A stretch of DNA of 24,000 nt from Candidatus Nanosyncoccus sp. (GTDB lineage: Bacteria > Patescibacteriota > Saccharimonadia > Saccharimonadales > Saccharimonadaceae): the NCBI GenBank assembly GCA_045651545.1, contig JAZRSM010000015.1, positions 26,640-50,639 of the forward strand, given 5' to 3'. Position numbers and translations under genes: made by a program. Shown here in pieces: positions 5,370 through 23,571 of the stretch. Within the stretch, counting starts at the first letter, position 1. Each line of letters starts with the position of its first letter. The notes beneath the pieces are model-generated. The model had not been told where the DNA came from. It saw nothing but the letters and a program-made list of their open reading frames with translations, and did not search any database.

Positions 5370-5440
5370 TAAGCGGAGTGGTTTTAAGCATAAGCATTGC
5401 AATTTTAAGCGTAGGCGGTATCGATTTAATCAGGTTTGAT

Positions 5441-6079
5441 TTAGCGATTGTGTTTGGCAAAGTCGTAAAGACGATCAACGAGCTCGGCGAAGACTTCTTC
5501 GCGAGTCATGTCGGCGCGAACTTGGACAAGGAGACCGAGAGCCTGATAGTGCTGAATGACTGGCATAGTTTTCTCGATGAATTCTTTAATACGGATACCA
5601 AAGATACCGCGGCTTTTGTCATCTTCACGTTTGGTGACTTCTTGACCAGTTTCGCGGACACCGTTGTCACGGACGGTTTCCCAACGACTTTCGACATCGG
5701 CTTCGGAAATATTAAGCAAAATAGCAGCCTTTATCGGATGGTCAGCCTCGGCGGCAGCGTTCATGACTTCATTTTCTTCGCCACTCCAACGGCCGACGGA
5801 AGACAAGACAAGTGCAGATTCCTTCAAATCGGGGCGCGCAAAATATGGCAAAACCCAATCGTAGAAAACATCAGTTGGAGCAAGGGCGCCACCTTCGGTG
5901 TAATGTTCACCTTTTTCTTGTTCCATAGCCCGGATAATCATGCCGGAAGACAAAAATCTGGCGCCAAGACTTTCGGCAAGTTTGATGCCGACGGTATCTT
6001 TGCCACTCATTGGTAAGCCAAAAATGTTGATAGAACCCGTGCCGAGCCATTCTTTGATGTATGCTAGTTTTTCTTCCAT
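5441..6079 (-). CDS. Adenylate kinase-family / P-loop nucleoside monophosphate kinase-like protein
   Basis: The P-loop-like motif GLPMSGKDT near the N-terminus, the size (212 aa) and the overall layout resemble NMP kinases. An AGGAG SD lies 6 nt upstream. Substrate specificity cannot be assigned. Confidence 0.55.
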   Translation of the reverse strand: MEEKLAYIKEWLGTGSINIFGLPMSGKDTVGIKLAESLGARFLSSGMIIRAMEQEKGEHYTEGGALAPTDVFYDWVLPYFARPDLKESALVLSSVGRWSGEENEVMNAAAEADHPIKAAILLNISEADVESRWETVRDNGVRETGQEVTKREDDKSRGIFGIRIKEFIEKTMPVIQHYQALGLLVQVRADMTREEVFAELVDRLYDFAKHNR

Positions 6080-6123
6080 TTGATTCTCCTTTACATTTTT
6101 GAATTATTTTTGCGCGTTAATTT

Positions 6124-6609
6124 TTAGACATTTTTGACTTTGACCATAGCGGGGCGAATAACGTTACCCTCGTAAATATAGCCAGCGCGCAAAGTTTCTG
6201 ACACGACTTCTTTTTCTCCTTCGGATTCTTCCATCATGATAGCGTCATGTAAATCTGGATTAAAGTCGGTGCCTGTAGCCGAGTCGATTTTTTGGAGCTT
6301 CAATTCGGTGAGAGTTTTTTCTAGATTTTTCTCAAGCGGCTTTAGCTCTGGAGTGGCGGCAATTGCGCGATCAATGTCGTCTAGGAGTGGTAAGATTTTG
6401 CGGACAGTTTCGTATTTAGCAAAAGAAGCGGCCTGAGCTTTTTGGGCGTCCATTTGTTTGCGATAGTTCTCGAAATCAGCGCGAGTACGCTGAAGATCGG
6501 CGGTTAGCTCGGCGATTTTCTGAGCGTATTGAGCGCTTTGTGAGCTGTTAGTTTGTGGGGCGTCAGCTTGTGGATTGTTAGTTTTTTGATTGTCGGATTT
6601 TTTAAGCAT
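6124..6609 (-). CDS. grpE: GrpE nucleotide exchange factor
   Basis: A coiled-coil region (LQRTRADFENYRKQ) followed by a C-terminal beta domain (HDAIMMEES..GYIYEGNVIRPAMVKV). A GAGGAGG SD is present. The gene overlaps the hrcA stop by 8 nt. Confidence 0.9.
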   Translation of the reverse strand: MLKKSDNQKTNNPQADAPQTNSSQSAQYAQKIAELTADLQRTRADFENYRKQMDAQKAQAASFAKYETVRKILPLLDDIDRAIAATPELKPLEKNLEKTLTELKLQKIDSATGTDFNPDLHDAIMMEESEGEKEVVSETLRAGYIYEGNVIRPAMVKVKNV

Positions 6610-7429
6610 TACATACCTCCTCTAACATATTTCCTGCGCGACGAACGAGCGACATGACGCGACCGTAATTCTGACGAGTCGGGCCAAGAACGCCAATATA
6701 ACTATTATCTGAATACGGCGAGCGGAATTTGCTGATAATTAGTGAAACTTCGGAAGTTTTGCCGATAGGATTTTCTTCGCCGATGAAAATATTGAGTGGC
6801 TCGCCTGGAGCGGCTTCACGGAGCCAAGGCTCGAGGTTATCTAGAAGTTTTGCGACGCTTTGGACGCGAGCGGTATCCATAAATTCTGGCTGAGTGAAGA
6901 GGCGTGACATACCGGCAAGGTAAAGCTGGTCGCCGATAGTAGCAAGACCGAGGTTACCAGTAAGCTCAACGAGAGAGTCGACGGCGCCACGAATTGCGAA
7001 ATCAGCGCGCTTTTGGGACTCGATGCGAAGCTTAATGGCGTGAGACTCACGTTCGGCGCGACCGTCGGAAAGAAGGCGCGAAAAACTAGTGAGTGAGCTT
7101 TCTGGAAGGGAGTTAGCCTGGTTGAGAGTGCCTGGATTAAGCGTGCTTTGGCTGGCGCCTTGGTTGGCGCTTGGATTGGCGCTGTTCATGTTTTCGGTAA
7201 GAGAATTAACATAGAGACGGTAGCCAGAGTCGGTCGGGACACGGCCGGCAGAAGTATGTGGCTGAACTAGCAAGCCAACTTCTTCTAGCTTGGCCATTTC
7301 GGAACGGATAGTAGCACTAGAAACACCAAAAAGTTTAGCCAAAGTAACCGAGCCAACAGGAGCGGCGGTTTCGGCGTATTCTTCGATAATTGCAAAGAGA
7401 ACTTCTTTTTGGCGCTTGGTAATTGTCAT
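6602..7429 (-). CDS. hrcA: HrcA heat-inducible transcription repressor
   Basis: N-terminal wHTH (RQKEVLFAIIEEY..PVGSVTLAK..VSSATIRSEMAKLEE.GLL.QPHTSAGRVPTDSGYRLYV). I place the start at ATG 7429 (MTITKRQ), not the tracked 7453, because a TATAAT box sits 6 nt upstream of 7429 and the CIRCE element lies beyond it. Confidence 0.9.
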   Translation of the reverse strand: MTITKRQKEVLFAIIEEYAETAAPVGSVTLAKLFGVSSATIRSEMAKLEEVGLLVQPHTSAGRVPTDSGYRLYVNSLTENMNSANPSANQGASQSTLNPGTLNQANSLPESSLTSFSRLLSDGRAERESHAIKLRIESQKRADFAIRGAVDSLVELTGNLGLATIGDQLYLAGMSRLFTQPEFMDTARVQSVAKLLDNLEPWLREAAPGEPLNIFIGEENPIGKTSEVSLIISKFRSPYSDNSYIGVLGPTRQNYGRVMSLVRRAGNMLEEVCNA

Positions 7430-7435
7430 AACTAT

Positions 7436-7441
7436 ATTATA
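7436..7441 (-). promoter_or_regulatory. -10 box (TATAAT) of the hrcA-grpE operon, 6 nt from the ATG
   Basis: The minus strand reads TATAAT-ATAGTT-ATG. CIRCE begins 6 nt further upstream and covers the -35 region. Confidence 0.5.
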
Positions 7442-7446
7442 GTAAA

Positions 7447-7473
7447 TTAGCACTTAAAATGCAAGAGTGCTAA
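7447..7473. promoter_or_regulatory. CIRCE operator (HrcA binding site)
   Basis: TTAGCACTT-N9-GAGTGCTAA has one mismatch to the canonical TTAGCACTC-N9-GAGTGCTAA consensus. It lies directly upstream of hrcA. Confidence 0.9.
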
Positions 7474-7534
7474 TTTTATTTAGCGCGGTGGGAATTTTTT
7501 GGAATTTTTGAGGTTTACATGCAAGTTGTGATGG

Positions 7535-9322
7535 CTAGTTGTCGCGTTTTAGCATGACGGTAAAGGCTTCTGAAGGGATGTCGATTTTGCCAAAGCGTTT
7601 CATGCGGGCTTTGCCGCGTTTTTGCTTTTCTAGCAATTTGGCTTTTCTATCGCGGTCGCCAGTATGAATTTTGACGGTGACATCTTTGCGGTATGCGCCG
7701 ATGGTTTCGCGGGCGATGATCCTGGCGCCGATGGCGGCCTGGAGTGCCACCTCAAAATTCTGACGAGGGATGACTTCTTTTAGCTTTTTCGTGATTTCGC
7801 GCCCGAGCGCGTCGGCCTCCGTGCGGTGGCACATACAGGCCAGTGCGTCGATTTTCTGGCCACCGACCAGAAAATCGACTCGCACCAAATCTTCTGGCCG
7901 ATAGTCGGCAAGCTCATAGTTAAACGAAGCATAGCCGGATGTAGACGACTTTAACTGGTCATAAAAGTCGGTCAGAAGATTTGCCATCGGCGCCTCAAAG
8001 TCTATAACGGCGCGATCTTCAATATAACTCAAATTAGTTTGGTGCCCGCGTTTTTCTACAATTAAATTTAGGACATTGCCAATCATAGTCTTAGGCACAA
8101 TAATTTCGCCCTTGACCCATGGCTCGCGGATTTCTAAAATCTCGTTCATGTCAGGAAGGTCGGCAGCGGATTTGATTTCCATTTCTTCACCAGAATTTAG
8201 TGTTACCTGATAATTAGTAGAAGGATTCGTAACGACTAAATCCAAATCGAATTCACGCTCCAAACGCTCACGAATGATGTCCATGTGGAGTAGCCCCAAG
8301 AAACCGATGCGAAGGCCAAAGCCCAACACTGGTGAATTTTCTGGCTCAAATTGAAGCGCAGAATCAGAAAGTGCTAATTTTTCGATAGCTTCTTTTAGGG
8401 TCTTGTAGTCCTCGTTAGAAACTGGGAAGAAACCAGCATAGACAAAAGGTTGGACATTTTTATACCCTGGAAGAGGCTCCGTGGCAGGCGACTTTACAAG
8501 TGTCACAGTATCGCCAACTTTAGCCTCGCGCGTAGTCTTTAAGTTCGTCACAATATAGCCGATTTCACCTTCCTCTAGCTCAGGCTTAGGACTCATCTCA
8601 GGCTTTAATATGCCAACTTCTAGAGCTAGGCCGTGACTGCCAGCGGCCATCATTTTAATTTCACTATTCTTTGGAAGTTTGCCGTCAAAAATTCTGACAT
8701 ATAAAACTACGCCACGGTAGTCGTCAAAATAGCTATCGAAAATTAAAGCACGCAGAGGCACCGAGTGCGATAGTGCCTTGCTCGGCGCTGGTGCTTTTTC
8801 GATGATTCTGTCTAGTACTTGCTCGACGTTGAGGCCGGTTTTGGCGGAGACGCCAATGATTTCTTCGCGGTCGCAGCCAAGAAGATTTACAATTTGGTCT
8901 TTAACTTTTTCGACGTCGGCAGCAGGAAGATCAATTTTGTTAATGACTGGAATGATGTATAAATCTTGTTCCAAAGCTAAATAGACATTGGCCAGAGTCT
9001 GCGCCTGAATGCCCTGCGTCGCATCAACTACCAGAATCGCGCTTTCTACGGCCTGAAGCGAGCGGCTAACTTCATAAGAAAAATCAACATGACCTGGGGT
9101 ATCAATTAGATTTAGCTCGTAGCCTTTGTAATGCATCTGCACAGGCGTGAGTTTAATCGTAATTCCCTTTTCGCGTTCAAGTTCCATGGAATCCAAAAGC
9201 TGCGCTTTCATTTCACGCTTTGCCACGGTGCCAGTGATTTCCATCATGCGGTCTGCAAGGGTGGATTTACCATGATCGATGTGAGCAATAATACAAAAAT
9301 TTCGGATTTTGTCGGTATTCAT
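7535..9322 (-). CDS. lepA: Translation elongation factor 4 (LepA/EF4)
   Basis: GTPase motifs AHIDHGKST, DTPGH and NKID, followed by the LepA-specific C-terminal domain (GARIIARE..YRKDV..K..GGD..RK.KLLEKQK.GK). Length is 595 aa. Confidence 0.95.
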   Translation of the reverse strand: MNTDKIRNFCIIAHIDHGKSTLADRMMEITGTVAKREMKAQLLDSMELEREKGITIKLTPVQMHYKGYELNLIDTPGHVDFSYEVSRSLQAVESAILVVDATQGIQAQTLANVYLALEQDLYIIPVINKIDLPAADVEKVKDQIVNLLGCDREEIIGVSAKTGLNVEQVLDRIIEKAPAPSKALSHSVPLRALIFDSYFDDYRGVVLYVRIFDGKLPKNSEIKMMAAGSHGLALEVGILKPEMSPKPELEEGEIGYIVTNLKTTREAKVGDTVTLVKSPATEPLPGYKNVQPFVYAGFFPVSNEDYKTLKEAIEKLALSDSALQFEPENSPVLGFGLRIGFLGLLHMDIIRERLEREFDLDLVVTNPSTNYQVTLNSGEEMEIKSAADLPDMNEILEIREPWVKGEIIVPKTMIGNVLNLIVEKRGHQTNLSYIEDRAVIDFEAPMANLLTDFYDQLKSSTSGYASFNYELADYRPEDLVRVDFLVGGQKIDALACMCHRTEADALGREITKKLKEVIPRQNFEVALQAAIGARIIARETIGAYRKDVTVKIHTGDRDRKAKLLEKQKRGKARMKRFGKIDIPSEAFTVMLKRDN

Positions 9323-9333
9323 TATTACTAACT

Positions 9334-9342
9334 ATTATAACA
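9334..9342 (-). promoter_or_regulatory. Extended -10 promoter (TGTTATAAT) 11 nt upstream of the lepA ATG
   Basis: The minus strand reads TGTTATAAT-AGTTAGTAATA-ATG. The box overlaps the tilS stop codon. No SD is present. Confidence 0.4.
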
Positions 9343-10168
9343 TAAAATAGGATTTATTAAACCTGACAAGTCTGTCTCTAGGAAGGTTAAATTTTTTGCC
9401 AGAATCATATGCTCTGACTGCGTCGAGAAAATCGCGGAGCTGGGGACGCGTGACAGAAATATTATGAGACATTAAAATGCTCCGCAAAAGTTCTTCGGCA
9501 GTTTCGTTGTCTAGCTCTTTAAATAAGTTACGCGGATAAGCTTTGTTGTCTAAAAAAAGTTTCGATAGATTTTGTTCGATTTCTTTACGTAAATCACATT
9601 GACGCGAATACAGTTCATCTAGTTTTTTAGCGGCGTCTGGTTGGGTCTTAATAAACTCGGCTACGGCAGGTCGGAGACGATTTCTTAAGTAAATATCTTC
9701 ATTGTTAGTTGGATCTTGACGAAAAACAATTTGATTTTTGCTAGCATAACGATAGATTTCGGACTTAGTAAAATGAAGCATAGGATGCTCGATTTCGGCA
9801 TTGTAAAACGGCGTTAAGCCGCGCCAGCCAGTACCGCGCAAAAGATTAATCGCGATAGACTCACACAAGTCATTCAGGTGATGTGCGGTGTAAATTTTGC
9901 CGTCTAGCTCGCTTGCTAATTTGCGCAAAAAGTTATAGCGAGCCTCGCGCGCAGTGGCCTCGGAAACATTGGCGCCAAGATTTGCTTTTTCAGTATAGAA
10001 AGGCAAGCGATATTTTAAGGCAAATTCTTCAACAAAATTTTGGTCATCATCGGCGGAGGCTCTAGTGCCATGGTTAAAATGTGCAACCACGACATCCGAA
10101 TCATCCTTCATCATATGTAAAAGGCACATCGAATCAACACCGCCAGAAATTGCCAAAATCTTCTTCAT
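9335..10168 (-). CDS. tilS: tRNA(Ile)-lysidine synthetase (TilS), short form
   Basis: PP-loop ATPase motif SGGVDS at residues 8-13 and AHHLND further in. Size (277 aa) fits an N-terminal catalytic domain plus a small C-terminal region. Confidence 0.85.
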   Translation of the reverse strand: MKKILAISGGVDSMCLLHMMKDDSDVVVAHFNHGTRASADDDQNFVEEFALKYRLPFYTEKANLGANVSEATAREARYNFLRKLASELDGKIYTAHHLNDLCESIAINLLRGTGWRGLTPFYNAEIEHPMLHFTKSEIYRYASKNQIVFRQDPTNNEDIYLRNRLRPAVAEFIKTQPDAAKKLDELYSRQCDLRKEIEQNLSKLFLDNKAYPRNLFKELDNETAEELLRSILMSHNISVTRPQLRDFLDAVRAYDSGKKFNLPRDRLVRFNKSYFML

Positions 10169-10333: not shown

Positions 10334-11230
10334 TTATGCCGCTGCGAAACGGACTTCGCGATAATGGTTGAAGAGTTTTTCCTGCTCTCCCTCCAAACCG
10401 TGGATGTAACGCTCGGTGGTTTCGGCGCGAGCGTGGCCGAGCATCTGCTGCATCTCCAAAAGCGTTGCGCCCTGCTTCTGAATATCAGTGCCGAAAGTAT
10501 GTCGCAGCGCGTGAGGGTAGAAGTTGTCGTAGCCAGCTTTCTCGAATACTTTTCTCATTCGGATGCGAAGTTCATCGTTACAAAGGTGGCGGTGGTATTC
10601 ATTCACCCATAGCCAGTCCGTAACATCGGCGACTTCGATCCATTCTTGCAGATATTCGTAGGTTTCAGTGGCCACCCAAACTGTTCTTTGCTTGAACCCT
10701 TTACCTATGAAGTTTATCTGACGACCTTTGAAACTGTCTAGCTGAAGGTTTCTGAGCTCAGAGATGCGGAGGCCTGTGTCAAAGCATACTCTTATCAGAA
10801 GCCAGTCCATCAAGTTTTGGCGGCGCTCGAAGTCATCCTCGGCTTCGAGATCTATCACCGACAAAACCTTAGCTATATCGTCCCTTAGATAGAAGACACG
10901 GCGCACTGGCCCTTCCTTGAGTTTTTGGATGAGTGGAGTTTTAATAGGGATGGTCATCCCCATTTCTCGGTGATATTTTATGAGGCAGATGATGTGAGCG
11001 GAGCGCATATTGATCGTCCGCGGACTGATGCCTTTCTTAGCCTGGGCTTTTACCCAGCGGTTGTAGTCGGCATTGTCTAACTGTTCCAAGTCCTTACACT
11101 TAGACTGCTCGATAAACTGCTTGTAGCAACATTTTTTAGCGGTGAGAGTCATCGGACTTACCTGCTTTACAAACTCGCAGTATTCCAGATACTCATTCAC
11201 CTGAGAATATATCGGATCTCCTTTTGACAT
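10334..11230 (-). CDS. int: Tyrosine recombinase / phage integrase
   Basis: C-terminal catalytic signature: R (GLRISELRNL), HALRHTF, LGHARAETTERYIH (His-X-X-Arg ... Tyr). An N-terminal SAM-like core-binding domain is present. Confidence 0.9.
   Translation of the reverse strand: MSKGDPIYSQVNEYLEYCEFVKQVSPMTLTAKKCCYKQFIEQSKCKDLEQLDNADYNRWVKAQAKKGISPRTINMRSAHIICLIKYHREMGMTIPIKTPLIQKLKEGPVRRVFYLRDDIAKVLSVIDLEAEDDFERRQNLMDWLLIRVCFDTGLRISELRNLQLDSFKGRQINFIGKGFKQRTVWVATETYEYLQEWIEVADVTDWLWVNEYHRHLCNDELRIRMRKVFEKAGYDNFYPHALRHTFGTDIQKQGATLLEMQQMLGHARAETTERYIHGLEGEQEKLFNHYREVRFAAA

Positions 11231-12782: not shown

Positions 12783-12793
<11 letters not shown>
12434..12793 (+). CDS. Hypothetical acidic/lysine-rich phage protein
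   Basis: AGGAGG SD 6 nt upstream. The ORF is tightly packed, with an 11-nt overlap with the next gene. A low-complexity K/E-rich central segment is present. Confidence 0.6.
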
Positions 12794-13619
<826 letters not shown>

Positions 13620-13621: not shown

Positions 13622-14704
13622 ATGGCAAAAGTTCTAGTTACTGAGCAACATCTACAAGACATCGCGGACTCTATTCGTGGCAAGAACGGCTCAGCCGCTA
13701 CCTATAAGCCAGGGCAGATGAGCGCAGCCATCGATGCTATTCCTACTGGTGGATCTACTCGGCCAGAAACCTGGGCGGAGTTCGCCGCTATGTCATCAAG
13801 CACGCTTCAGAAGTGCTATGGTGTAGGCGACCGAGTTGGCATCGCTTGTCCGTGGAAATCGCCGTCAAACAACACGACCTACGACTTAATGTGGGAGATC
13901 GCCGCTTTTGGAACGACCAAGAAAGAAAACGACAACACAGACTACCCTTGCGTTACGCTCGTTGCACGGCTCGCTACTCCTGGTTCTTATCAGTTTGATG
14001 CGGCAGAGACACCAACGGCTGCAACGGAAGAAACCGCGCAAGACGGTATCTACTACTTTGGCTTTGATGGCACGAATTATACGGCACTCAACCTATCTAC
14101 TGGAGATACTATTCCTTATGGCGACTATACGGCGGTGTATAAGACAGATGTTACGAACAATGTTCAAAAGTTCAACGAGATCCGCCAATACGGCTACAAT
14201 GTTTACAAATACTCGGCTATTCGTCAATGGCTAAACTCTGATGCGGATGCCAATAGCTGGTGGCAAGCAAGCCACATCGGCGATGTTGCGCCAAACTATA
14301 CGAACCAAAAAGGCTTTATGTCAGGGTTCGAGGCGGCCTTCAAGAACATCTTGCAAAGAACAGAAGTTGCAACCGCTGGCAACAACTACACCGATGACGG
14401 CTCTATCTACAAGACTTATGACTACTTCTTCTTGCCCTCAAGATATGAGCTCTACGCGACAAGCTCACCAGTTGAAGGCGACAGAATGCCATACTTTGGA
14501 GTGAATAACGCGAATGTTAGAGGTCTCACGGCTAGAGGCCCTGCCTCTGGCGGCAGCACCAACAGCTGGTGGGAGCGGTCTGCTTGTCACGGCAACGCTA
14601 GTGGCGCGTATAGTGTCGGCAGCAGCGGCACCCCAGGCAGCGGCAACAGCGCGAGCGGCGCTTATTGTGTGGTCGCGGCTTGTAAGATCATCTTAGCATC
14701 CTAA
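13622..14704 (+). CDS. DGR target (variable) protein; putative receptor-binding tail fibre tip with a C-terminal C-type-lectin-like variable domain
   Basis: GAGGAG SD. The C-terminal 48 codons (PASGGSTNSWWERSACHGNASGAYSVGSSGTPGSGNSASGAYCVVAAC) are the VR copy of the template repeat. The WW.RS-type scaffold is typical of DGR variable proteins. Confidence 0.9.
   Translation: MAKVLVTEQHLQDIADSIRGKNGSAATYKPGQMSAAIDAIPTGGSTRPETWAEFAAMSSSTLQKCYGVGDRVGIACPWKSPSNNTTYDLMWEIAAFGTTKKENDNTDYPCVTLVARLATPGSYQFDAAETPTAATEETAQDGIYYFGFDGTNYTALNLSTGDTIPYGDYTAVYKTDVTNNVQKFNEIRQYGYNVYKYSAIRQWLNSDADANSWWQASHIGDVAPNYTNQKGFMSGFEAAFKNILQRTEVATAGNNYTDDGSIYKTYDYFFLPSRYELYATSSPVEGDRMPYFGVNNANVRGLTARGPASGGSTNSWWERSACHGNASGAYSVGSSGTPGSGNSASGAYCVVAACKIILAS
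14542..14684 (+). repeat. DGR variable region (VR)
   Basis: Gap-free 143-bp alignment to 15213-15355 with 23 mismatches by manual count. Of these, 22 lie at positions that are A in the other copy. Confidence 0.9.
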
Positions 14705-14709
14705 GCATC

Positions 14710-14735
14710 GGCGGCGGACACTTCCGCCGCCTTTG
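14710..14735 (+). terminator. GC-rich hairpin plus a short T-run after the target gene; terminator and/or DGR target-recognition hairpin
   Basis: GGCGGCGGA-CACT-TCCGCCGCC (14710-14731) followed by TTTG. It begins 26 nt after the end of VR homology. Confidence 0.7.
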
Positions 14736-14744
14736 TCTCCTCTG

Positions 14745-14753
14745 TGATATAAT
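14745..14753 (+). promoter_or_regulatory. Extended -10 promoter (TGATATAAT) 6 nt upstream of the avd ATG; predicted leaderless avd-TR-RT transcript
   Basis: TGATATAAT-ATAAGT-ATG has the same geometry as the host leaderless promoters. It lies just downstream of the 14710 hairpin. Confidence 0.55.
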
Positions 14754-14759
14754 ATAAGT

Positions 14760-15182
14760 ATGAGCGTTGTGGAAGAAAAGCGCAAGAAAGGTAAACTTGA
14801 AGTCTGCATCAAGGCGCTGGAGCTTGCGACTTATACCATTCAAATCACGGCGAATGAAAAGGTTTTCGAGCCGAAATATCGTGCCGCGGTTACGAATGAC
14901 TTGATCTCCCACGCAAAAGACATCTATCTCATCTGCTGGACGGCCAACAATATCCGAGTCGCTAGCGAAGAGGCTTACAGGGAGCGGCGAAGACTTCAGG
15001 ACAAAGCCATCATTGAATGCACGACTTTTCTAGGCCTTCTTGATATTGCCAAGAAGGTCTTTCATCTTGAAACAAAAAGAGTAACTTACTGGGCGAAGAA
15101 GACGGTGGAATGCCGCTCGCTCATCCGAGCTTGGCGCAACTCGGACAAAGAAAGATACAAAGCGCGCTACGATACTTCGTAG
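14760..15182 (+). CDS. avd: DGR accessory variability determinant (Avd-like four-helix-bundle protein)
   Basis: 140 aa, basic, predicted all-helical. It sits between the target gene and TR, as in the Bordetella phage BPP-1 mtd-avd-TR-brt layout. Confidence 0.75.
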   Translation: MSVVEEKRKKGKLEVCIKALELATYTIQITANEKVFEPKYRAAVTNDLISHAKDIYLICWTANNIRVASEEAYRERRRLQDKAIIECTTFLGLLDIAKKVFHLETKRVTYWAKKTVECRSLIRAWRNSDKERYKARYDTS

Positions 15183-15212
15183 CGTAGGTTGTAGGCTAAA
15201 ATTGTTCTTGTG

Positions 15213-15355
15213 TGCCTCTGGCGGCAACACCAACAACTGGTGGGAGCGGTCTGCTAATCAGGGCAACGCTAATAACGCGTATAATGTCAACAACAACGGC
15301 AACCCAGGCAACAACAACAACGCGAGCAACGCTAATTATGTGGTCGCGGATTGTA
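15213..15355 (+). repeat. DGR template repeat (TR)
   Basis: Noncoding A-rich copy of the VR. In the VR frame it reads as 18 Asn codons (14 AAC + 4 AAT). The ORF-track peptides at 15202-15387 and 15212-15439 are artefacts of this repeat. Confidence 0.9.
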
Positions 15356-15537
15356 TCGACAACTTTCTATCGTGTGCCTGCGCGTAACGCAGGAGTGAAA
15401 GAGCATCTGATACGATACAAGGAGCCGAATACCTGCTAATTCCGTGGAATTGTGCGGAATTGCGAACAACTGTGCGGTGATGCGAGTTTATTTCTCCGAA
15501 CTAGGCTCGCTATCACACCGCACCTCAAGAGAAACGA
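15356..15537 (+). ncRNA. DGR spacer region between TR and RT (predicted structured part of the DGR RNA)
   Basis: Hairpin CCTGCG-CGTAA-CGCAGG (15377-15393). Small hairpin AATTC-CGTG-GAATT (15438-15451). Long interrupted stem GTGCGGTGATGCGAG (15472-15486) pairing with CTCGCTATCACACCGCAC (15506-15523). Confidence 0.5.
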
Positions 15538-15543
15538 GTGGTT

Positions 15544-16563
15544 ATGGAACATATTATCGGTTTTGATGCTCTCTATGAGAGTATGAACAAGTGCAAAAAT
15601 GGTGTTATATGGAAAGACAGCGTAGCTCATTTTGTCCTGAATGCAGTCGAAGAGACGATGAAGCTTGAAGAACAGCTCAAGACTGGCAAATACCGCTCGC
15701 GCAAAGGCCGAGTTTTCACCTTAGAAAGCCCAAAGCGCCGCCAGGCGATGGGAATACCTTTCCGAGACCGTGTATATCAGCGGAGCCTCTGCGACAATGA
15801 AATCTACCCTGAACTTACCAAGCATCTCATCAAAGACAACTTCGCCTGCCAAACTGGCAAAGGCACCGACTGCGCAAGAGCCAGGATGAAGCAGTTTCTG
15901 CGCCGCATCTATCAACGAGATGGCGGCGACTTTTATGCCCTACAATGCGACATCAGAGGTTACTGCCCCAATATGAACCACAAAGTAGCTGAAGACATCC
16001 TGAAGAAATACTTGAAGCCTGAAATCGCTGCTATGGCCATTGAAATACTACACCAGCAATACCCAGGCGAAGTCGGCTATCTTCCAGGCAGTCAGCTTGT
16101 CCAACTGCTCGGCATCTCCATCCTGAACCCAATGGATCACTACATCAAGGAAAAGCTCCGCATCAAAGAATACGGTCGCTATATGGACGACTTCCTTCTC
16201 TTCCATAAAGACAAAGTCTATCTCGAATACTGCAAAGACCAAATCGAAAAGGGCTTGAACGCGCGTGGTTACGAACTACATCCTAAGAAGACACGCATCT
16301 TCCACATCAAAGAGGGCTTTCGCTTTCTCGGCTTCTACTTCTCACTGACTGACACTGGCAAGGTTGTGATGCTTATCGATCCAAAGAATGTGAAGATGGC
16401 TAGAAGGCGCTTGCGCCGTATGGCTGGGCTAGTCCGAAAAGGCAAGCTCACCAGGCACAAAGTCGATGAATGCTACAAGTGCTGGCGCAACCACGCATCA
16501 AAGGGCGACTCACTCGCTCTGTTACAGCGAATGGACACCTTCTATGAAGACCTCTGGCACTAA
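15544..16563 (+). CDS. DGR-type reverse transcriptase
   Basis: RT motifs include the catalytic YMDDFLLF, an upstream ACQTGKGT motif typical of DGR RTs, and LPGSQLVQLLGISILNPMDH (SQ-containing motif 4 region). ATG 15544 is preferred, but GTG 15538 is possible. Confidence 0.9.
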   Translation: MEHIIGFDALYESMNKCKNGVIWKDSVAHFVLNAVEETMKLEEQLKTGKYRSRKGRVFTLESPKRRQAMGIPFRDRVYQRSLCDNEIYPELTKHLIKDNFACQTGKGTDCARARMKQFLRRIYQRDGGDFYALQCDIRGYCPNMNHKVAEDILKKYLKPEIAAMAIEILHQQYPGEVGYLPGSQLVQLLGISILNPMDHYIKEKLRIKEYGRYMDDFLLFHKDKVYLEYCKDQIEKGLNARGYELHPKKTRIFHIKEGFRFLGFYFSLTDTGKVVMLIDPKNVKMARRRLRRMAGLVRKGKLTRHKVDECYKCWRNHASKGDSLALLQRMDTFYEDLWH

Positions 16564-17104: not shown

Positions 17105-17210
17105 GAAGAAACGAACACTCAAGCCTCAGACCTTACTGGAAACTGGCCGCTGGAAAATCTCTGCCGAAGCCAAAGCTTTACTTGAGAAAATGAAGGGGGT
17201 GAAGAAATGA
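17094..17210 (+). CDS. Small basic ORF (38 aa), coupled on both sides
   Basis: ATG 17094 overlaps the end of the previous ORF. Its TGA overlaps the next ATG (ATGA at 17207-17210). Sequence is MENKKKRTLKPQTLLETGRWKISAEAKALLEKMKGVKK. It is below the ORF-track length cutoff. Confidence 0.35.
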   Translation: MENKKKRTLKPQTLLETGRWKISAEAKALLEKMKGVKK

Positions 17211-18703
17211 TCAGTGTCATCATCCCAGTCTATAACGAGGAGCCCTTCCTCGAACGATGCCTAGATAGCCTGGCCAAGCAGACGGACAAGTCGGCGCAAG
17301 TCATTATCGTGGATGATGGCTCAACCGATGGCTCGCCTAAAATCTGCGACCGCTACGGCAAGGAATATGGCTTTGAAGTTTATCACCTGGAAAACAATGG
17401 TGTCTCGGCCGCGCGCAACTTTGGGATGGAAAAGGTCAAGGGCGAATACCTTACCTTCTTAGATGCTGATGATGCCTACTCTTTGAACGCTATCGAAGTG
17501 ATGAATGGCTTGGCGAAGCGTGGCGACAATGTGATACAGTTCGGCCAATACCGCCACACCAAAACGCAAGAAGAGCCTATTCTGCGCGCCTGGCCAAAGG
17601 GCGACTATGACCTAGACCACTTACGGCGCTACTGGCAGATGGTATGGAACAAAATCTACAAGACGGAGTTCATCAAGAAAAACGACTTCAAGTTTATTCA
17701 AGGGATGCAGTTCGGCGAAGATGAGATGTTCAATGTGAATGTCCTACTGAAAAGCGGCGGACTTTATCATACATCGGACTTGCTCATCCACCACTACTTT
17801 GACAACACTAACTCTTTATGTCGTGGTGGGTTATGCTTGGCGCGGCTCGAACGGATGGACGATGAAGAGAACAGACTACTCAGACGGCTCAAACTAGGCG
17901 ATGCGCCTATTGCTCAACGGCGCTGGCTGAAGCGTGTCATCACTCGGCATCGCCACAGTAAGGTGTTCCAGGACTACGGCTTTACGCGTGGAACTACTGC
18001 GCACAATGACATCGTTTATTTTGTGAAGAATGAGTCTGAAAACGAAGAGCTCCGTTACTCTCTGCGCTCTGTCGAAAAGTTCTTCCCCCATCGGAATGTG
18101 TGGTTCTATGGCGGCAAGCCTGATGGTCTCAACCCAGACCGCTATGTGAAAGTCGAACAAACCGAAGACACCAAGTGGGAGCGTGTCCGCTCGATGCTGC
18201 GGCAAGCCTGCCTGAACGATGAAATCTCGGAAGACTTCTGGCTATTCAACGATGACTTCTTCATTATGAAACCCTATGCGGAGAATACTCCACCGACCTA
18301 CAATGGCGACCTATACCGCCATATTGTCCGTGTGGAAGAGCGCCACAACCAGCAAGCAACGACTTGGACGGCACGGCTCCGACACCTCGTGAACACGCTT
18401 GAAACCGCTAATAAAGGCACTTTGAACTACGCAGTCCACAAACCTATACTCATCAACCGCAAAAAAGCTCTGGAAGTCCTGGACAAGTTCCCAGACGAAC
18501 CGATGTTCCGTGCGTTATACGGTAACTACTGGGAAATCGGCGGCACAAACCAGGGCGATCGCAAGTGCCAGGTGATGGACTTCCCAGTTGAGACGCTAAA
18601 GAAATGGGCGACTATTTCGTCCGATGATAAGAGCTTCGCAGGCGGCACGGTTGGCGAATACATCCGTGGTCAATTCCCACAGAGAAGCAGGTTCGAGGAG
18701 TAG
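17207..18703 (+). CDS. Two-domain glycosyltransferase: N-terminal GT2 fused to a C-terminal Stealth-like (hexose-1-phosphoryltransferase family) domain
   Basis: GT2: IIPVYNEEPFLERCLDSL..QT...VIIVDDGSTDGS and DADD. C-terminal half: DIVYFV, ELRYSLRSVEKFFP, FWLFNDDFFIMKP and HKP resemble Stealth conserved regions CR1-CR3 from memory. Confidence 0.65.
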   Translation: MISVIIPVYNEEPFLERCLDSLAKQTDKSAQVIIVDDGSTDGSPKICDRYGKEYGFEVYHLENNGVSAARNFGMEKVKGEYLTFLDADDAYSLNAIEVMNGLAKRGDNVIQFGQYRHTKTQEEPILRAWPKGDYDLDHLRRYWQMVWNKIYKTEFIKKNDFKFIQGMQFGEDEMFNVNVLLKSGGLYHTSDLLIHHYFDNTNSLCRGGLCLARLERMDDEENRLLRRLKLGDAPIAQRRWLKRVITRHRHSKVFQDYGFTRGTTAHNDIVYFVKNESENEELRYSLRSVEKFFPHRNVWFYGGKPDGLNPDRYVKVEQTEDTKWERVRSMLRQACLNDEISEDFWLFNDDFFIMKPYAENTPPTYNGDLYRHIVRVEERHNQQATTWTARLRHLVNTLETANKGTLNYAVHKPILINRKKALEVLDKFPDEPMFRALYGNYWEIGGTNQGDRKCQVMDFPVETLKKWATISSDDKSFAGGTVGEYIRGQFPQRSRFEE

Positions 18704-18705: not shown

Positions 18706-20166
18706 ATGGACGAGCACGATAGAAACATTATGCAGCGTTTCAATGAGCAGTTCACTAACCGCGACATTGACCTAGCGATGGCGCACAACAACCTTTGGCA
18801 CTTCTGCAACATTCTCTTCCCCAACTTCTTCAAGGATGACCGCGAGTATCTGACTGATATGTGCGACCGCATCGAAAACTTCGTGGAGAACTCCGACAAA
18901 CACTTCCTAGTCATCAACGCACCACCGCGCCACGGCAAATCACTCACGGCGCAGTGCCTTACTGCTTGGCTCTTTGGCCGCAACCCAGCCTGCCGAGTGA
19001 TGACCGCATCGTATAACGAGGATGTAGCTGGCATCTTCTCACGAAATGTGCGGAACACTATTCAGACCGAGAAGCTGGGCGATGCTATCGTCTTTTCGGA
19101 CATCTTCCCCAGGACTAAAGTGAAGCACGGCGAAGCGGCGGCGAAACGCTGGACTTTGAAAGGACAAACACAAATCTCCTACCTTGCCACATCTCCTAAT
19201 GCTACCGCCACTGGCTTTGGCTGCGACTTTATGATCTGCGATGACCTTATCAAGAACGCAGAAGAAGCCTACAACGAAACAGAGTTGGACAAGACTTGGA
19301 GTTGGTTCACTAACACAATGCTCTCTCGCTTGGAGGGTAAGCGTAAGACCATCATCATTATGACTCGCTGGGCCGAGAATGATCTTGCTGGCCACATCAT
19401 AAGAGCCTTTGGCGAAGATGTAGAAATCATCACCTACAAAGCCCAAGACGAGAACGGCAAGATGCTCTGCGATGAAATACTTGATACCAAGTCTTTCGAG
19501 ATGGTGAAGCAGGAAATGAATGTCGATATTGCCGAAGCGAACTACAACCAGCAACCGATAGATGTCAAAGGTCGGCTCTATTCAGAGTTCAAGACCTGGG
19601 AGCAGCGACCGAATATGCCGATAATCTACGACTACACCGATACCGCCGACACTGGCGAGGACTACCTCGTTTCAGTGGTATATGGGGTGTATGAAAATGA
19701 GGCTTATGTCCTTGATCTCGTCTTTACAGACGAGCCGATGGAAACCACCGAGCCAGCGGTTGCGAAACTGCTGACGGACAACGGAGTCAACAAGGCGACC
19801 ATTGAGTCAAACAATGGCGGCCGTGGCTTCGCGAGAAATGTGGCTCGCTTGCTCTCTGAGATGGGCAACCACAAGACTCAGATGGCAGACCAGGCTCAGA
19901 CGAAGAACAAGGAAAGCCGTATTCTGGCCAGCTCGGCCTGGGTGCAGAACCACATCTATATGCCACTCAACTGGCGGACTAGATACCCAGAGTTCTATAA
20001 GCAGGTTATGAGTTACCAGAAAAAGGGCAAGAATGCCCACGATGATGCCGTAGATGTTTTGGCTGCTATCTATGAGGCAGTAGCCAACGCACCTAAAGCT
20101 AAAATCTACACCGATGCTGATCTCGGCCGCGCCGCAGCACATCGGCGAGCGCCGTTTATGAGATAA
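18706..20166 (+). CDS. terL: Terminase large subunit
   Basis: Walker A-like motif PPRHGKS, Walker B/coupling motif DFMICDDLIK, and a C-terminal RNase-H-like nuclease region with acidic residues (DTADTGEDY, HDDAVD). A GAGGAG SD is present. Confidence 0.9.
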   Translation: MDEHDRNIMQRFNEQFTNRDIDLAMAHNNLWHFCNILFPNFFKDDREYLTDMCDRIENFVENSDKHFLVINAPPRHGKSLTAQCLTAWLFGRNPACRVMTASYNEDVAGIFSRNVRNTIQTEKLGDAIVFSDIFPRTKVKHGEAAAKRWTLKGQTQISYLATSPNATATGFGCDFMICDDLIKNAEEAYNETELDKTWSWFTNTMLSRLEGKRKTIIIMTRWAENDLAGHIIRAFGEDVEIITYKAQDENGKMLCDEILDTKSFEMVKQEMNVDIAEANYNQQPIDVKGRLYSEFKTWEQRPNMPIIYDYTDTADTGEDYLVSVVYGVYENEAYVLDLVFTDEPMETTEPAVAKLLTDNGVNKATIESNNGGRGFARNVARLLSEMGNHKTQMADQAQTKNKESRILASSAWVQNHIYMPLNWRTRYPEFYKQVMSYQKKGKNAHDDAVDVLAAIYEAVANAPKAKIYTDADLGRAAAHRRAPFMR

Positions 20167-20179: not shown

Positions 20180-21556
20180 ATGGCCATCAATAAACGAATG
20201 TATGTCCTGCCGAAAGGCACTGAACCGACTGGTGAGGTAGTCCAAACCCTCATCAGTAGCGTGAAGCGCGCGGATGAACTTCGCCGCTACAACGAACTTG
20301 ACCGATACTACAACGCAGAAAAGGTCGTGGGCGAGGAGGGCTCAGAGCCTCTAGTGGCCGTTACTGCCTTTGCGCGTTATATCACAGGGCTCAATACTGG
20401 CTATCTGCTAGGCAACCCAGTAACTTACACCGTGAGTAAAGGTGTGAAGTTCGAGAAGATCCAGAATGAGTTCGATGACCAAATCATCAGCAATACCGAC
20501 ATCCGCATCGCCAACGATGCTTCCAAGTTCGGACACGGCTTCGAGCGTATCTATGTCAACGAAGACTCCAAGTGCCGCTCTGCCGTAGTTGATCCACGCA
20601 ACATCATCCTAGTTCGCGACAATACCGTAGAACACAAAAAGATGTTCGCTATCATCTATGTAAACTCCGTCAACGAGAAGGGCGAAGAAATAAAAGATGA
20701 ATACGAAGTAACCATCCTCACCCCAACGATGACAATGGAGCGCCACCTGAAAGGCACGGCTATGATAGGCGATGAAGGCACCGACCAGATCCACTTCTTC
20801 AATGAAGTGCCTATCGTGGAATACCCAAACGATGACGACATTCTCGGCGACTATGAGACGGTGATATCGAATATCGATGCTTACGACAAGCTCCAGACCG
20901 CTCGCGTGAATGACCGTATGAAGAACGCGAACTCCATCCTACTCGTTTCTGGTGGTGGTCTCGAAGAAAAGCAGGTCGAAGACATTATGAATGGTCGCAT
21001 CGCTGACCTTCCAGAAGGTGCCGAGATGAAATACATCACTAAGAGCACGAACGAAGAAGAAAGCGAGAAGCTCCGCGACTCCATCAAGGATGACATCCAT
21101 ATGATCTCAATGACTCCTGATGTTTCGGACAAGAACTTTGCAGGTAGCGCCTCTGGTGTTTCGCTACAATACAAACTCTTCACCTTTGAAAAACACGCGA
21201 AAGATAAGGAGCGCTGCTTTGAAGCTTCGCTTATGGAGCGTATTCACCTCTACAATGTTTACCTGATGAAAACCGCCAATATGCCAGCCATTGAAATCGG
21301 CGACATTGATGCGGTGTTCAAGCGTGCTCTACCGCAGAACGATGTCGAAACTGCGAATATGATCAACGCTCTCGATGGTATCGTTGACCGTGAAACTCTT
21401 GTCTCCCAGCTCTCCTTCGTGGTAGATGCCAAAGAGACTGTGGAGTTGGCCAACGCAGAAAAAGACAAGAAAGCCACTGACGATAACGGCAATTTTGGCA
21501 CAGACAAACCTTCTGAGCGCGATCTCGATGAGAGTGAAAGCCTAGAAGATATGTAG
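20180..21556 (+). CDS. Portal protein (SPP1 gp6-like)
   Basis: 458 aa, immediately after terL. The N-terminal L.RY..LDRYYN motif and the acidic C-terminus are typical of the SPP1-type portal family. Confidence 0.8.
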   Translation: MAINKRMYVLPKGTEPTGEVVQTLISSVKRADELRRYNELDRYYNAEKVVGEEGSEPLVAVTAFARYITGLNTGYLLGNPVTYTVSKGVKFEKIQNEFDDQIISNTDIRIANDASKFGHGFERIYVNEDSKCRSAVVDPRNIILVRDNTVEHKKMFAIIYVNSVNEKGEEIKDEYEVTILTPTMTMERHLKGTAMIGDEGTDQIHFFNEVPIVEYPNDDDILGDYETVISNIDAYDKLQTARVNDRMKNANSILLVSGGGLEEKQVEDIMNGRIADLPEGAEMKYITKSTNEEESEKLRDSIKDDIHMISMTPDVSDKNFAGSASGVSLQYKLFTFEKHAKDKERCFEASLMERIHLYNVYLMKTANMPAIEIGDIDAVFKRALPQNDVETANMINALDGIVDRETLVSQLSFVVDAKETVELANAEKDKKATDDNGNFGTDKPSERDLDESESLEDM

Positions 21557-21564: not shown

Positions 21565-23244
21565 ATGGTAAGCTCAAAAGACTACTGGGAAAAGCGAGCG
21601 ATAGAAAAACTCACTGAAGCAGAAATCAAGTCTGAGCCGTATCTCAAGCAAATCTACGGTATCTATACCAGTGCGCAGCGCCAAACTGTCAGCGAGATAC
21701 AACACCTCTATCGCACATACTACGCAGAAAATAAGTGGGACACCACAGCCCTCAACGCTATTGCACCGAGTGGCGACCTAGTGAAGTTCTACAACCAACT
21801 GCGAGCCGCAGGGCTAGACAAGCGACTCCCTGAGCGCTTCAACGGCCGTTTGAGCCGTCTTGAGCTTCTGAACGCTCAACTATGGCTCGAAGCCAAAAGA
21901 GTCGGTCTGAAGCAGAATGAAGTGGAAACAACGGCACATTCTAACACCATTAAGGATGCCTACTACCGCTCTATCTATGACTCGGCCAAGAAGCTCGGTG
22001 CAACGGAAGCCTTCTCTACCTTAGACGACAAGACCGTCAACAAAATACTCCGCACCAAGTTCGCTGGCGCTAACTACTCCGAACGCATCTGGGGTAACAC
22101 TGACAAGCTGGCGGACAGCCTACAAGCGGTCATCGGCAAGGCGGTTGCTCTCGGCCAAAGCCCTGAAGTAACGGCTCGAATGATACGCGAACGCTATGGG
22201 GTGAGCCAGCACGCAGCGATGCGCCTAGTCAGGACGGAAACCAGCTACTTTGAAAACCTCTCCACCGTTGAGGCTTATAAAGAGATGGGTATCGAAAAGT
22301 TCCAGTTCCTCGCTACGCTAGATATGCGCACATCGGACATCTGCCGCTCAATGGACAAGCGCATCTTCTCAATGAAGAGCGCAAAGGTCGGCGAGAATGT
22401 TCCGCCGCTCCATCCGTGGTGCCGTTCAACTATCACGCCATATCTTGGCAAAGACTACAAGATAAATGAGCGCGTGGCGCGAGATCCGTCCAACGACAAG
22501 AACTACTATGTCCAGGGCGATATGAACTACGGCTCCTGGCACAAGTCGCTCGTGGATCGCTTTGCAAACAAACTCAACCATCGCGTAACTATCACTGAAG
22601 TAAGCGATGCAGGTATGGTTGCTACGGACTTCGGAGTAACCTTTGATGCTTTTTCAATGCTTGATATAGACGATGTGCTAGTAGATGAGGTCGCAAAAAA
22701 CGCAGAAGCGTTGATGACTGCTCACCCAGAGCTTCAAGCGTGGGCGAAGAGTCAAGGCAAAGATGGCTTGATCATCAGCGGCGCGAAACCAAGCAAGATG
22801 GGCTATGGCACTATCGCCAGAACTCGTCAATGGCTTTCCAACCGCAAGTCGCCAGAAATCAACCTCAATACACGCTACTACAAGAGCGCCAAGAGGCTTA
22901 GCTCGGAGGTATTCAAGGGTGTCCGTTCCAAGCACTTTATGCCAGCCACGGACTACAAGAACTACACCTTCTACCACGAGTTCGGCCACTTCATCGAAAA
23001 TTATCTTCTACGCAAAGGCAACACGGATGCTGCCGCTCGGCGCATTATGCGTGATATAATTGACATAGCGGTGCGGCAAACAAAAACTGACCGAAACACG
23101 GTGCTGGCACAGGCTTCCAAGTATGCTCGCTCAAAGGCACACGGTCGCGAGTTCTTCGCGGAAGCCTTCGCCAACCTACAAAGCGGTCGGCCGAATGCCA
23201 TAGGCAAGGCGATGAAAACTTATCTTGAAAAGGAGTTGAAATGA
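21565..23244 (+). CDS. MuF/SPP1 gp7-like head morphogenesis protein fused to a C-terminal lethal-factor-like (ATLF-type) zinc metalloprotease domain
   Basis: The MuF domain ends with PPLHPWCRSTITPY (the family PPLHPNCRC motif). The C-terminal domain has HEFGH (22975-22989) and EFFAEAF (23149-23169) 54 residues later, comparable to anthrax lethal factor HEFGH...EFFAEAF. Confidence 0.8.
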   Translation: MVSSKDYWEKRAIEKLTEAEIKSEPYLKQIYGIYTSAQRQTVSEIQHLYRTYYAENKWDTTALNAIAPSGDLVKFYNQLRAAGLDKRLPERFNGRLSRLELLNAQLWLEAKRVGLKQNEVETTAHSNTIKDAYYRSIYDSAKKLGATEAFSTLDDKTVNKILRTKFAGANYSERIWGNTDKLADSLQAVIGKAVALGQSPEVTARMIRERYGVSQHAAMRLVRTETSYFENLSTVEAYKEMGIEKFQFLATLDMRTSDICRSMDKRIFSMKSAKVGENVPPLHPWCRSTITPYLGKDYKINERVARDPSNDKNYYVQGDMNYGSWHKSLVDRFANKLNHRVTITEVSDAGMVATDFGVTFDAFSMLDIDDVLVDEVAKNAEALMTAHPELQAWAKSQGKDGLIISGAKPSKMGYGTIARTRQWLSNRKSPEINLNTRYYKSAKRLSSEVFKGVRSKHFMPATDYKNYTFYHEFGHFIENYLLRKGNTDAAARRIMRDIIDIAVRQTKTDRNTVLAQASKYARSKAHGREFFAEAFANLQSGRPNAIGKAMKTYLEKELK

Positions 23245-23411
23245 AGACTGAGCCATACTTTCTAACAAACGAAGCCTGGTATCGCCTCAAAGAAGGTGGC
23301 TTTGGCTACGAACTCACCCCAGCAGGTCGGAAGATACCTGAAGTGGTGGCGAGCTACGAAGAGTTCTACTCCACTGAACGCGATGATGGCGATGAACTGG
23401 TAGATGCTTGA
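23241..23411 (+). CDS. Small acidic ORF (56 aa) translationally coupled to the MuF-protease gene; candidate immunity/inhibitor protein
   Basis: ATGA start/stop overlap at 23241-23244. Sequence is MKTEPYFLTNEAWYRLKEGGFGYELTPAGRKIPEVVASYEEFYSTERDDGDELVDA. It is below the ORF-track cutoff. Confidence 0.45.
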   Translation: MKTEPYFLTNEAWYRLKEGGFGYELTPAGRKIPEVVASYEEFYSTERDDGDELVDA

Positions 23412-23437
23412 GATATTTTGCTTGACAAGTATTTCTG

Positions 23438-23523
23438 TGTTATAATGTAAGTAGATCGACTGCGACTCTTACGAGTTCCAGTCGTCTTCTTTTTTAGAGC
23501 GGCTCTCGAAGGGCCGCCTTTTT
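23438..23523 (+). promoter_or_regulatory. Phage leader module C: extended -10 promoter + conserved 5' leader + two tandem terminator-like hairpins
   Basis: TGTTATAAT (23438-23446), a 6-nt spacer, then AGATCGACTGCGACT from 23453. Hairpin arms CGACTG (23457-62) and CAGTCG (23479-84) are followed by TCTTCTTTTTT. Then comes GCGGCTC-TCGAA-GGGCCGC-CTTTTT (23499-23523). Confidence 0.65.
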
Positions 23524-23571
23524 GTCGAAAGTATTACCAACCTCGCTGCGAAGCGTAAAATCGGAGGAACT

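Follow-up and report, generated by a model that had tools for sequence, protein, structure and literature searches.

Why would a phage fuse its minor head protein to a domain that looks like a zinc protease and follow the fusion directly with a gene for only 56 amino acids? The question arises from a 24,000-nucleotide stretch of DNA from Candidatus Nanosyncoccus sp. (GenBank assembly GCA_045651545.1, contig JAZRSM010000015.1, positions 26,640 to 50,639 of the forward strand), which is referred to here at its full length as the window. An earlier note, made from the letters alone, had described two overlapping open reading frames (ORFs) on the forward strand of the window, 21565..23244 (559 aa) and 23241..23411 (56 aa), and both are present as described. 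We consider it probable that they encode a polymorphic effector of the MuF family, belonging to a temperate Saccharibacteria phage and carrying a zincin tail of the anthrax lethal factor (LF) type, together with its cognate inhibitor or immunity protein. The pair is compact, consisting of a predicted protease domain of 225 aa and a 56-aa partner from a sizeable unnamed family, and capsid-delivered effectors represent a little-explored route by which phages may manipulate cells at injection.

The N-terminal module is a MuF-type minor head protein

By every feature that can be tested at the sequence level, the N-terminal part of the 559-aa protein is a MuF (SPP1 gp7-type) minor head protein, as had been proposed. 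The module spans aa 1-336 (21565..22572, +), the part that is retained when the tail is exchanged, as seen from its identity to a relative described below (P0014), and matches the minor head protein family PHROG 115 (E = 6e-92). Its core at aa 186-290 (22120..22434, +), which carries a PPLHPWCR motif, is recognized well above threshold by both Pfam PF04233 (Phage_Mu_F, E = 1e-13, 52.3 bits against a cut-off of 29.6) and TIGR01641 (phageSPP1_gp7, E = 3.5e-26, 91.7 bits against a cut-off of 39.65). The MuF-family motif PPLHPWCRSTITPY occupies aa 280-293, the position originally assigned to it. The gene is located directly 3' of the portal gene, the canonical position of MuF genes, with a DUF4355 scaffold gene coming next in relatives. 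The protein belongs to a 57-member cluster at 90% identity, one member of which is named 'SPP1 gp7 family putative phage head morphogenesis protein'. In studied phages, the MuF module binds the portal, is packaged at low copy number in each capsid and exits together with the DNA (PMC5512222, PMC12323379, PMC5576092). By analogy with SPP1 gp7 and 80alpha gp44 (PMC12323379), we infer that the fusion protein encoded here would likewise be a virion component ejected with the DNA.

The C-terminal domain resembles the catalytic domain of lethal factor

The remainder of the protein (aa 337-559; 22573..23241, +) is an exchangeable domain that a family profile, an AlphaFold2 (AF2) model and structural neighbors in BFVD all point to as an LF-like zincin metallopeptidase. 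Its putative active center is formed by HEFGH at aa 471-475 (22975..22989, +), containing the predicted zinc-binding histidines and catalytic glutamate, an SxY(G) motif at S518-K-Y520 (23116..23124, +) and the sequence EFFAEAF at aa 529-535 (23149..23169, +), a helix with the predicted third zinc ligand. HEFGH and EFFAEAF lie exactly where the earlier note had placed them and align to the same motifs in LF, the SxY(G) motif aligning to LF 'tSYGR' with Tyr728. In LF, these motifs supply the zinc ligands and the catalytic tyrosine, which is Tyr728. 54 residues separate H475 and E529, and the H-to-E spacing is similar to that in LF (58 residues here compared with 49). Across 36 aligned relatives, reaching down to 24% identity, H471, E472, G474, H475, S518, Y520, F531 and E533 are invariant while E529 is conserved in at least 90%. 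This invariance rules out a chance HExxH, and because the motif residues are invariant or nearly so, the domain looks catalytically intact. The last 220 residues of the protein are basic, with a pI of 9.7.

LF is the top and only consistent match in homology searches with this domain. Searching the PDB with the single sequence returned anthrax LF as the sole match (E = 1.3) with HEFGH, S-x-Y and EFFAEAF aligned. With a seven-member family profile the six best matches were all LF chains (best E = 1.6e-4), the region around S518/Y520 and E529 aligning to LF 'SYGRTNEAEFFAEAF'. Pfam ATLF (PF07737) is the commonest and best non-MuF match of family members, found for five of seven and then six of eight proteins with E-values of 5e-6 to 1e-2 (15.6-26.7 bits, just under the gathering score of 27.4 bits), and is listed in precomputed tables for some relatives. 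An AF2 model of aa 296-559, computed with 36 homologues (pLDDT 90.8, pTM 0.89), contains a three-stranded sheet, the HExxH helix and later the EFFAEAF helix (helix 233-244 of the model), an order that fits the zincin core topology as previously defined (PMC5512222). Foldseek searches against the predicted viral structures of BFVD yielded significant neighbors (E = 3e-10 to 4e-4, 14-22% identity) including a 'Minor capsid protein' (3e-10), two entries named 'Lethal factor' (1.6e-5 and 1.8e-5), a 'Metalloprotease' and the MuF-like minor capsid protein of Mycobacterium phage Rope (1.8e-4). The UniProt entries of the 'Lethal factor', 'Metalloprotease' and 'MuF-like minor capsid protein' types (for example A0A8S5P4H8, A0A8S5U055 and A0A7G9V067 of Rope) are structurally similar to the domain in the window and several are MuF fusions; the names of the 'Lethal factor'-type phage entries are automatic annotations only.

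Some results count against an LF-type assignment. The protein of the window itself has no Pfam ATLF match at E <= 1, Pfam yielding MuF only, and even the best-scoring relative stays below the PF07737 gathering threshold. In addition, a Foldseek search against the PDB ranks LF (4xm8) first without reaching significance (E = 0.24, prob 0.35, TMq 0.34). The earlier proposal of an LF-like zincin consequently holds for the motif set HExxH / SxYG / EFFAEAF and for the profile match to LF, and falls short where a curated ATLF assignment of the domain is concerned; the suggested profile and structure searches do put LF in first place, without an ATLF match for this protein and without a significant fold match. 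Our reading is that the C-terminal domain probably works like an LF-type gluzincin and represents a divergent relative of the ATLF family. What it shares with the LF catalytic domain (MEROPS M34, PF07737, PDB 1J7N, 2L0R, 4XM8) is the order of the HEFGH, SxYG and EFFAEAF motifs. In contrast to LF, it lacks domains I-III, aligns only over about 75 active-site residues and gives a weak fold match (TM 0.34). Protective antigen carries LF into animal cells, whereas the MuF-zincin protein would enter a bacterium from a phage capsid.

The zincin domain and the small gene are exchanged together as a cassette

A homologue search using only the C-terminal domain returned six proteins, a number set by word-index limits, and a search with the full-length protein returned 798 relatives. 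Relatives aligned over the full query have the zincin in common, whereas many of the rest match just the first ~60% of the query and continue into other tails. Close relatives carry ADPrib_exo_Tox (PF03496), CdiA_C (PF18451) or Gln_amidase papain-fold toxin (PF15644) domains at this position, and the idea of a swappable MuF tail is thereby borne out, with ADP-ribosyltransferase (ART), CdiA_C-like or glutamine-deamidase domains taking the place of the zincin. One such relative, P0014, is 78% identical to the protein of the window over aa 2-336, then becomes unrelated and ends in an ADP-ribosyltransferase. Its locus (L003) shows the same order of terminase, portal, MuF and DUF4355 scaffold genes without the 56-aa partner gene, and an unrelated 30-aa ORF is found in place of the latter. 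DNA homology between the window and L003 restarts immediately 3' of the small ORF, at a conserved leader. As protein identity stops at aa 336 and DNA homology resumes only after the small ORF, the exchanged unit spans approximately 22573-23415 and comprises both the zincin domain and the small gene. Among 69 complete MuF relatives, 60 have a non-zincin tail or no tail. Because a head module almost identical to this one functions with another tail, the zincin is not a head-assembly function.

The intergenic leader at the right border of the cassette (23438..23525, +, within a region of interest at 23420-23560) is conserved in zincin- and ART-type relatives. In the window it contains an extended -10 element (TGtTATAAT) followed by two hairpins, the second of which (23499-23517) resembles a terminator. 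Its consensus across five loci (L001, L003, L004, L010 and L150) consists of an extended -10 element of the form TGTGnTATAAT-nTAAGTA, a first hairpin GACTGCGACTC...CAGTCGTC with a T-run and a conserved TCGnGGCGAnnCGT box ahead of the ribosome-binding site of the scaffold gene. The promoter-like motif of the leader recurs at 14745-14765. An Rfam search of the leader gave no match; it may act on the capsid genes as a regulatory RNA or an attenuator.

Three MuF-zincin relatives of 745-802 aa (P0020, P0024 and P0031) contain an extra insert of ~200 aa near the N-terminus with a sub-threshold CdiA_C-like match at aa ~71-146, which would mean two candidate effector domains in one protein. In their loci, moreover, the partner and scaffold genes are separated by a SocA_Panacea gene (L007 5712-6188, L009 5559-6032).

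The small gene is conserved, translationally coupled and linked to the zincin

The small gene (23241..23411, +) is a real, conserved and translationally coupled gene, with homologues found at zincin stop codons, and encodes an acidic 56-aa protein (pI 4.3) that is a candidate inhibitor or immunity protein. Its ATG overlaps the TGA stop codon of the MuF gene as ATGA, three bases being shared, and is preceded at a distance of 5 nt by an AAGGAG Shine-Dalgarno (SD) element within the 3' end of the MuF gene (23230..23235, +). The overlapping acidic ORF is thus present as the earlier note had it; the accompanying remark that the ORF track had missed it does not extend to public gene callers, which call the exact sequence, and NCBI/ENA record it as 'hypothetical protein'. 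No promoter of its own was detected upstream of the small gene.

Conservation of the partner follows the zincin. In six of six MuF-zincin loci at 41-57% identity, a partner homologue is located at the MuF stop codon, and when 56 viral contigs retrieved via the zincin were searched with a partner hidden Markov model (HMM), 47 had a homologue starting no more than ~30 nt from the zincin stop. Most of the remaining nine loci contain a divergent small ORF in which the pattern W-Y...L...AP-x-E-(I/V)-x-x-x-(Y/F) can be recognized by eye. As a control, the 69 complete MuF genes, retrieved via the N-terminal module, were divided into nine with and 60 without a zincin. The partner is found in six of the nine zincin-carrying loci and in none of the 60 others (Fisher p = 7e-7), and two of the three zincin-carrying loci scored as partner-negative hold a divergent copy. 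The zincin occurs fused to Phage_Mu_F, fused to Phage_min_cap2 or as a short standalone ORF, with the partner following in each setting. At 43 unique junctions, the partner start overlaps the zincin stop in 29 cases (ATGA in 19) and lies 0-15 nt downstream in 10 more, with an SD-like element ahead of the partner start in 38. The expectation that the small ORF is a conserved coupled gene is consequently confirmed, its presence co-varying strictly with that of the zincin domain.

A generic MuF-associated gene or regulator was also considered as an identity for the small ORF and rejected, as the ORF is missing from all 60 MuF loci that lack a zincin.

In two viral contigs (L052/L053 1947-4483), a tandem two-domain partner is encoded upstream of a non-MuF zincin ORF, and the ORF 3' of the latter has a similar N-terminal region with a different tail, which suggests an array of effectors with another shared delivery domain. 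Standalone zincins of ~240-250 aa without MuF (L026, L167 2252-2983 and P0003) begin with MGGRG(S/A)(F/Y)S, which may represent a different targeting or processing signal.

The partner family is large and includes chromosomal orphans

An exhaustive profile search identified 782 partner clusters at 50% identity with lengths of 46-175 aa and one to three copies of the domain. No fusion of the partner domain to any other domain was found in the best 150 of these clusters, and no natural zincin-partner fusion among 173 word-indexed matches or the same best 150 representatives. The family has no match in Pfam, NCBIfam or PADLOC, its members are recorded as 'hypothetical protein', and PHROG 20195, a family of no known function, matches only three of 32 members. 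An AF2 model of the partner (pLDDT 81) consists of a short helix, a beta-hairpin, two helices and a disordered acidic tail.

To find partner genes in other settings, five look-ups were started from the small protein using only long (chromosomal) contigs. Two of the five lie beside a zincin, one fused to MuF in a myovirus-like prophage and one standalone. The other three are orphans with no zincin within 3-4 kb (L162-164, L165-166 and L169). They represent a tandem two-domain version beside a helix-turn-helix (HTH) gene and an AAA_5/RE_LlaJI restriction pair, a copy at an island edge upstream of rpsF-ssb-rpsR and a copy surrounded by metabolic genes. Immunity genes typically occur in such orphan and tandem forms. 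The tandem orphan (P0127, present on over 140 contigs and carrying a name from Phascolarctobacterium) is located at L162-L164 3143-7198 between an HTH_3 'control protein'-like gene and the AAA_5 and RE_LlaJI genes with a phage-type amidase adjoining, a defence-island-like setting. The partner family appears to be undescribed, and we found no earlier account of how closely it is paired with LF-like zincins, of its orphans or of a Saccharibacteria example.

The small protein is most likely an inhibitor of the zincin

Partner divergence tracks zincin divergence (Spearman 0.59; partial 0.54 given the MuF part) and is nearly independent of the MuF module once the zincin is accounted for (partial 0.08). 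The two proteins also carry complementary charge, with a median net charge of -5 for the partner and +5 for the zincin. Over 48 unique pairs their charges are anticorrelated (rho -0.41, p = 0.003), and the rare acidic zincins pair with basic partners. Together with the orphan and tandem copies, these sequence-derived relationships favor, indirectly, a cognate binding inhibitor or immunity protein of the zincin as the most likely identity of the small protein.

In the mechanism we propose, H471 and H475 would serve as zinc ligands and E472 as the catalytic base, with E529 of the EFFAEAF helix as the third ligand and Y520 as the counterpart of LF Tyr728. The 56-aa protein would be produced by translational coupling to the MuF stop codon, and the acidic partner would bind the basic protease domain 1:1, holding the zincin inactive in the producing cell or lysogen. 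The MuF-zincin protein would be packaged in few copies and ejected with the DNA. In a new cell that lacks the partner, the ejected protease would then be active and cleave a host protein.

Several observations speak against this assignment of the partner or limit it. A PDB fold search with the partner model gave no significant match and no known inhibitor fold. Imm-SuFu, the immunity family described for ALF-type toxins, is not the family found here (PMC3482391). The linkage, mirror-tree and charge statistics ignore phylogeny, and adjacency alone can inflate them. The sample behind the orphans, five look-ups, is very small and biased towards long chromosomal contigs. Expression in a lysogen is also doubtful because the small gene is coupled to a late gene and a promoter of its own was not detected. 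Classical immunity against an incoming toxin would need such expression. Coupling to the late operon therefore suggests that the partner may chiefly be needed in lytic growth, to protect the cell that makes the protease or the virion under assembly.

The strongest competing idea about the partner is that it serves the zincin as a dedicated chaperone for folding or packaging, or as an adaptor or co-factor, and keeps it soluble or threading-competent or is delivered along with it. Strict adjacency, coupling, co-variation and complementary charge are equally expected for such a protein, and the failure to recognize a known inhibitor fold is in keeping with it. However, chromosomal orphans without a nearby zincin and tandem multi-domain versions would be pointless for a chaperone. 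Moreover, standalone zincins without MuF (L167, L026 and L039) retain the partner, which is therefore not tied to capsid packaging. On balance we regard a chaperone role as unlikely, if still worth a place in the argument.

Two further alternatives concern the zincin and the pair as a whole. The domain could be a morphogenetic or self-processing peptidase that functions in head maturation, scaffold removal or autoproteolytic release of the tail from MuF. The MuF part also has a match to PHROG 595, labelled 'head maturation protease', no dedicated prohead protease gene was seen from portal to scaffold, and self-processing has been proposed for zincin-like peptidases of phage polyvalent proteins (PMC5512222). 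Yet near-identical head modules, with 78% identity in MuF, the same order of portal, DUF4355 scaffold and capsid genes and the same leader, carry other tails. Together with the 60 of 69 complete MuF relatives that do without a zincin, this makes the domain dispensable for assembly. A dedicated co-varying partner would also be unexpected for a maturation protease, and we judge a morphogenetic role to be improbable. We attach still less probability to an interbacterial toxin-immunity system serving lysogens, in which particles or lysates would deliver the protease to non-lysogenic competitors and kill them, kin being spared by the small protein, in contrast to a takeover factor of benefit to the infecting phage. 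The idea corresponds to model (b) proposed for MuF toxins (PMC5576092), and chromosomal orphan copies resembling immunity genes would fit protection at the population level, but peptidase-type MuF cargo has been suggested to be of low toxicity and to modulate infection (PMC5576092), and the late coupling and missing promoter make expression in lysogens questionable for this scheme as well.

If the partner is an inhibitor, as we favor, LF-type metalloproteases would have a naturally occurring protein inhibitor, and the orphan copies of the partner would point to bacterial immunity against phage-injected enzymes. A more far-reaching and tentative proposal, which we hold to be possible rather than likely, is that the 45-50-residue domain 'PYFxxNxxWY...LTxxAPxxAxxSYxxFY' defines a new family of inhibitors specific for LF-like zincins whose orphan and tandem versions, in chromosomes and next to restriction systems, disarm phage-injected proteases as a layer of defence. 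Immunity genes would in that case have been recruited for phage defence directed at injected effectors.

The pair probably belongs to the class of MuF polymorphic toxins

Polymorphic toxins built on MuF and accompanied by downstream immunity genes form a well-established class in temperate phages (Jamet et al., 2017, PMC5576092; Zhang et al., 2012, PMC3482391). The locus shares with this class a MuF module beside the portal gene in a prophage, a variable tail and a small cognate gene directly downstream; it differs in its LF-like zincin cargo, its Saccharibacteria host and a partner family that has no Pfam or PHROG function and no name. About 20% of 191 predicted MuF toxins were reported to contain a metallopeptidase domain (PMC5576092). 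The combination of MuF and metallopeptidase is consequently already described and less new than the earlier note implied. According to Jamet et al., peptidase-type MuF cargo would modulate infection instead of killing the cell (PMC5576092). Experimental precedent exists for a MuF toxin with a downstream immunity protein that binds it (PMC12226406, PMC5576092), as in Apk2-IapK/Aph1 (PMC12226406); in the literature searched, we found no experimental test of a MuF-peptidase/immunity pair. The ALF-type metallopeptidase toxin with Imm-SuFu immunity of Zhang et al. is associated with PVC/T2SS delivery and not with MuF (PMC3482391).

A second related group are the zincins of phage and plasmid polyvalent proteins, which likewise enter the cell along with incoming DNA (Iyer et al., 2017, PMC5512222). 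For one of these, associated with the virion RNA polymerase of N4-like phages, HHpred-level similarity to LF has been reported (PMC5512222). Polyvalent-protein zincins are embedded in giant multi-domain proteins and have mainly been proposed to be processing peptidases (PMC5512222), in contrast to the two-domain protein with a partner gene found here.

The module is part of a prophage integrated into a Saccharibacteria genome

The MuF-zincin gene belongs to an integrated prophage in a Candidatus Saccharibacteria genome. Host housekeeping genes occupy 40-10168 of the window (PBP1A, PIN-TRAM, phosphoketolase, GrpE, HrcA, LepA and a PP-loop ATPase) and are followed at the prophage/host border by a tyrosine integrase gene (10334..11230, -; Pfam Phage_integrase, E = 7e-28). 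As the integrase adjoins bacterial housekeeping genes, we assign the region to an integrated prophage of a temperate phage. Phage genes follow the integrase in the order collagen-like protein, DUF6273 protein, reverse transcriptase, glycosyltransferase, terminase, portal and MuF-zincin. The large terminase (18706..20166, +) matches Pfam Terminase_6N and Terminase-T7_RNaseH-like, and the SPP1-type portal gene directly upstream of the MuF gene (20180..21556, +) matches Pfam SPP1_portal (E = 1e-79).

The closest genomic copy of the C-terminal domain, at 93% identity, is found in a Candidatus Saccharibacteria metagenome-assembled genome, and two remoter relatives also carry a Saccharibacteria label. 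Megablast and tblastn searches with the gene of the window gave no match among 50,697 GenBank phage records. For more typical family members the sole match in these records was an unannotated metagenomic fragment (MT838701.1), and a query with L059 gave a weak match to phiRSL1. Cultured-phage records thus hold essentially none of the zincin and partner module. Saccharibacteria are reduced-genome episymbionts whose phage biology is barely known, and for that reason any protease target found would be informative.

Several other features of the prophage were observed. A diversity-generating retroelement (DGR) is located at 13622-16563, with a reverse transcriptase ORF (15538-16563, RVT_1), a template repeat at ~15213-15350 just upstream of it and a variable repeat at ~14542-14680 that forms the 3' end of the target gene, the DUF6273 ORF (13622-14704). 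24 of the 37 mismatches between the repeats fall on template adenines, and RVT_1 genes occur at the same place in the relatives L003 and L004. Directly upstream of the DGR target, a collagen-like ORF (12783-13619) contains at least six 18-nt repeats coding for GXY (13302-13445) and may contribute to a tail fibre or to receptor binding. Immediately upstream of the large terminase, at 17207-18703, lies the gene for a family-2 glycosyltransferase of 498 aa that includes a Stealth_CR2-like region. No small terminase was recognized, its usual spot before the large terminase being occupied by this glycosyltransferase. Among the host genes, the phosphoketolase (3166-5354, -) is split into two ORFs with a 4-nt overlap, one encoding XFP_N (4401-5354) and the other XFP and XFP_C (3166-4404), which may be natural or result from a frameshift or from an error in the assembly.

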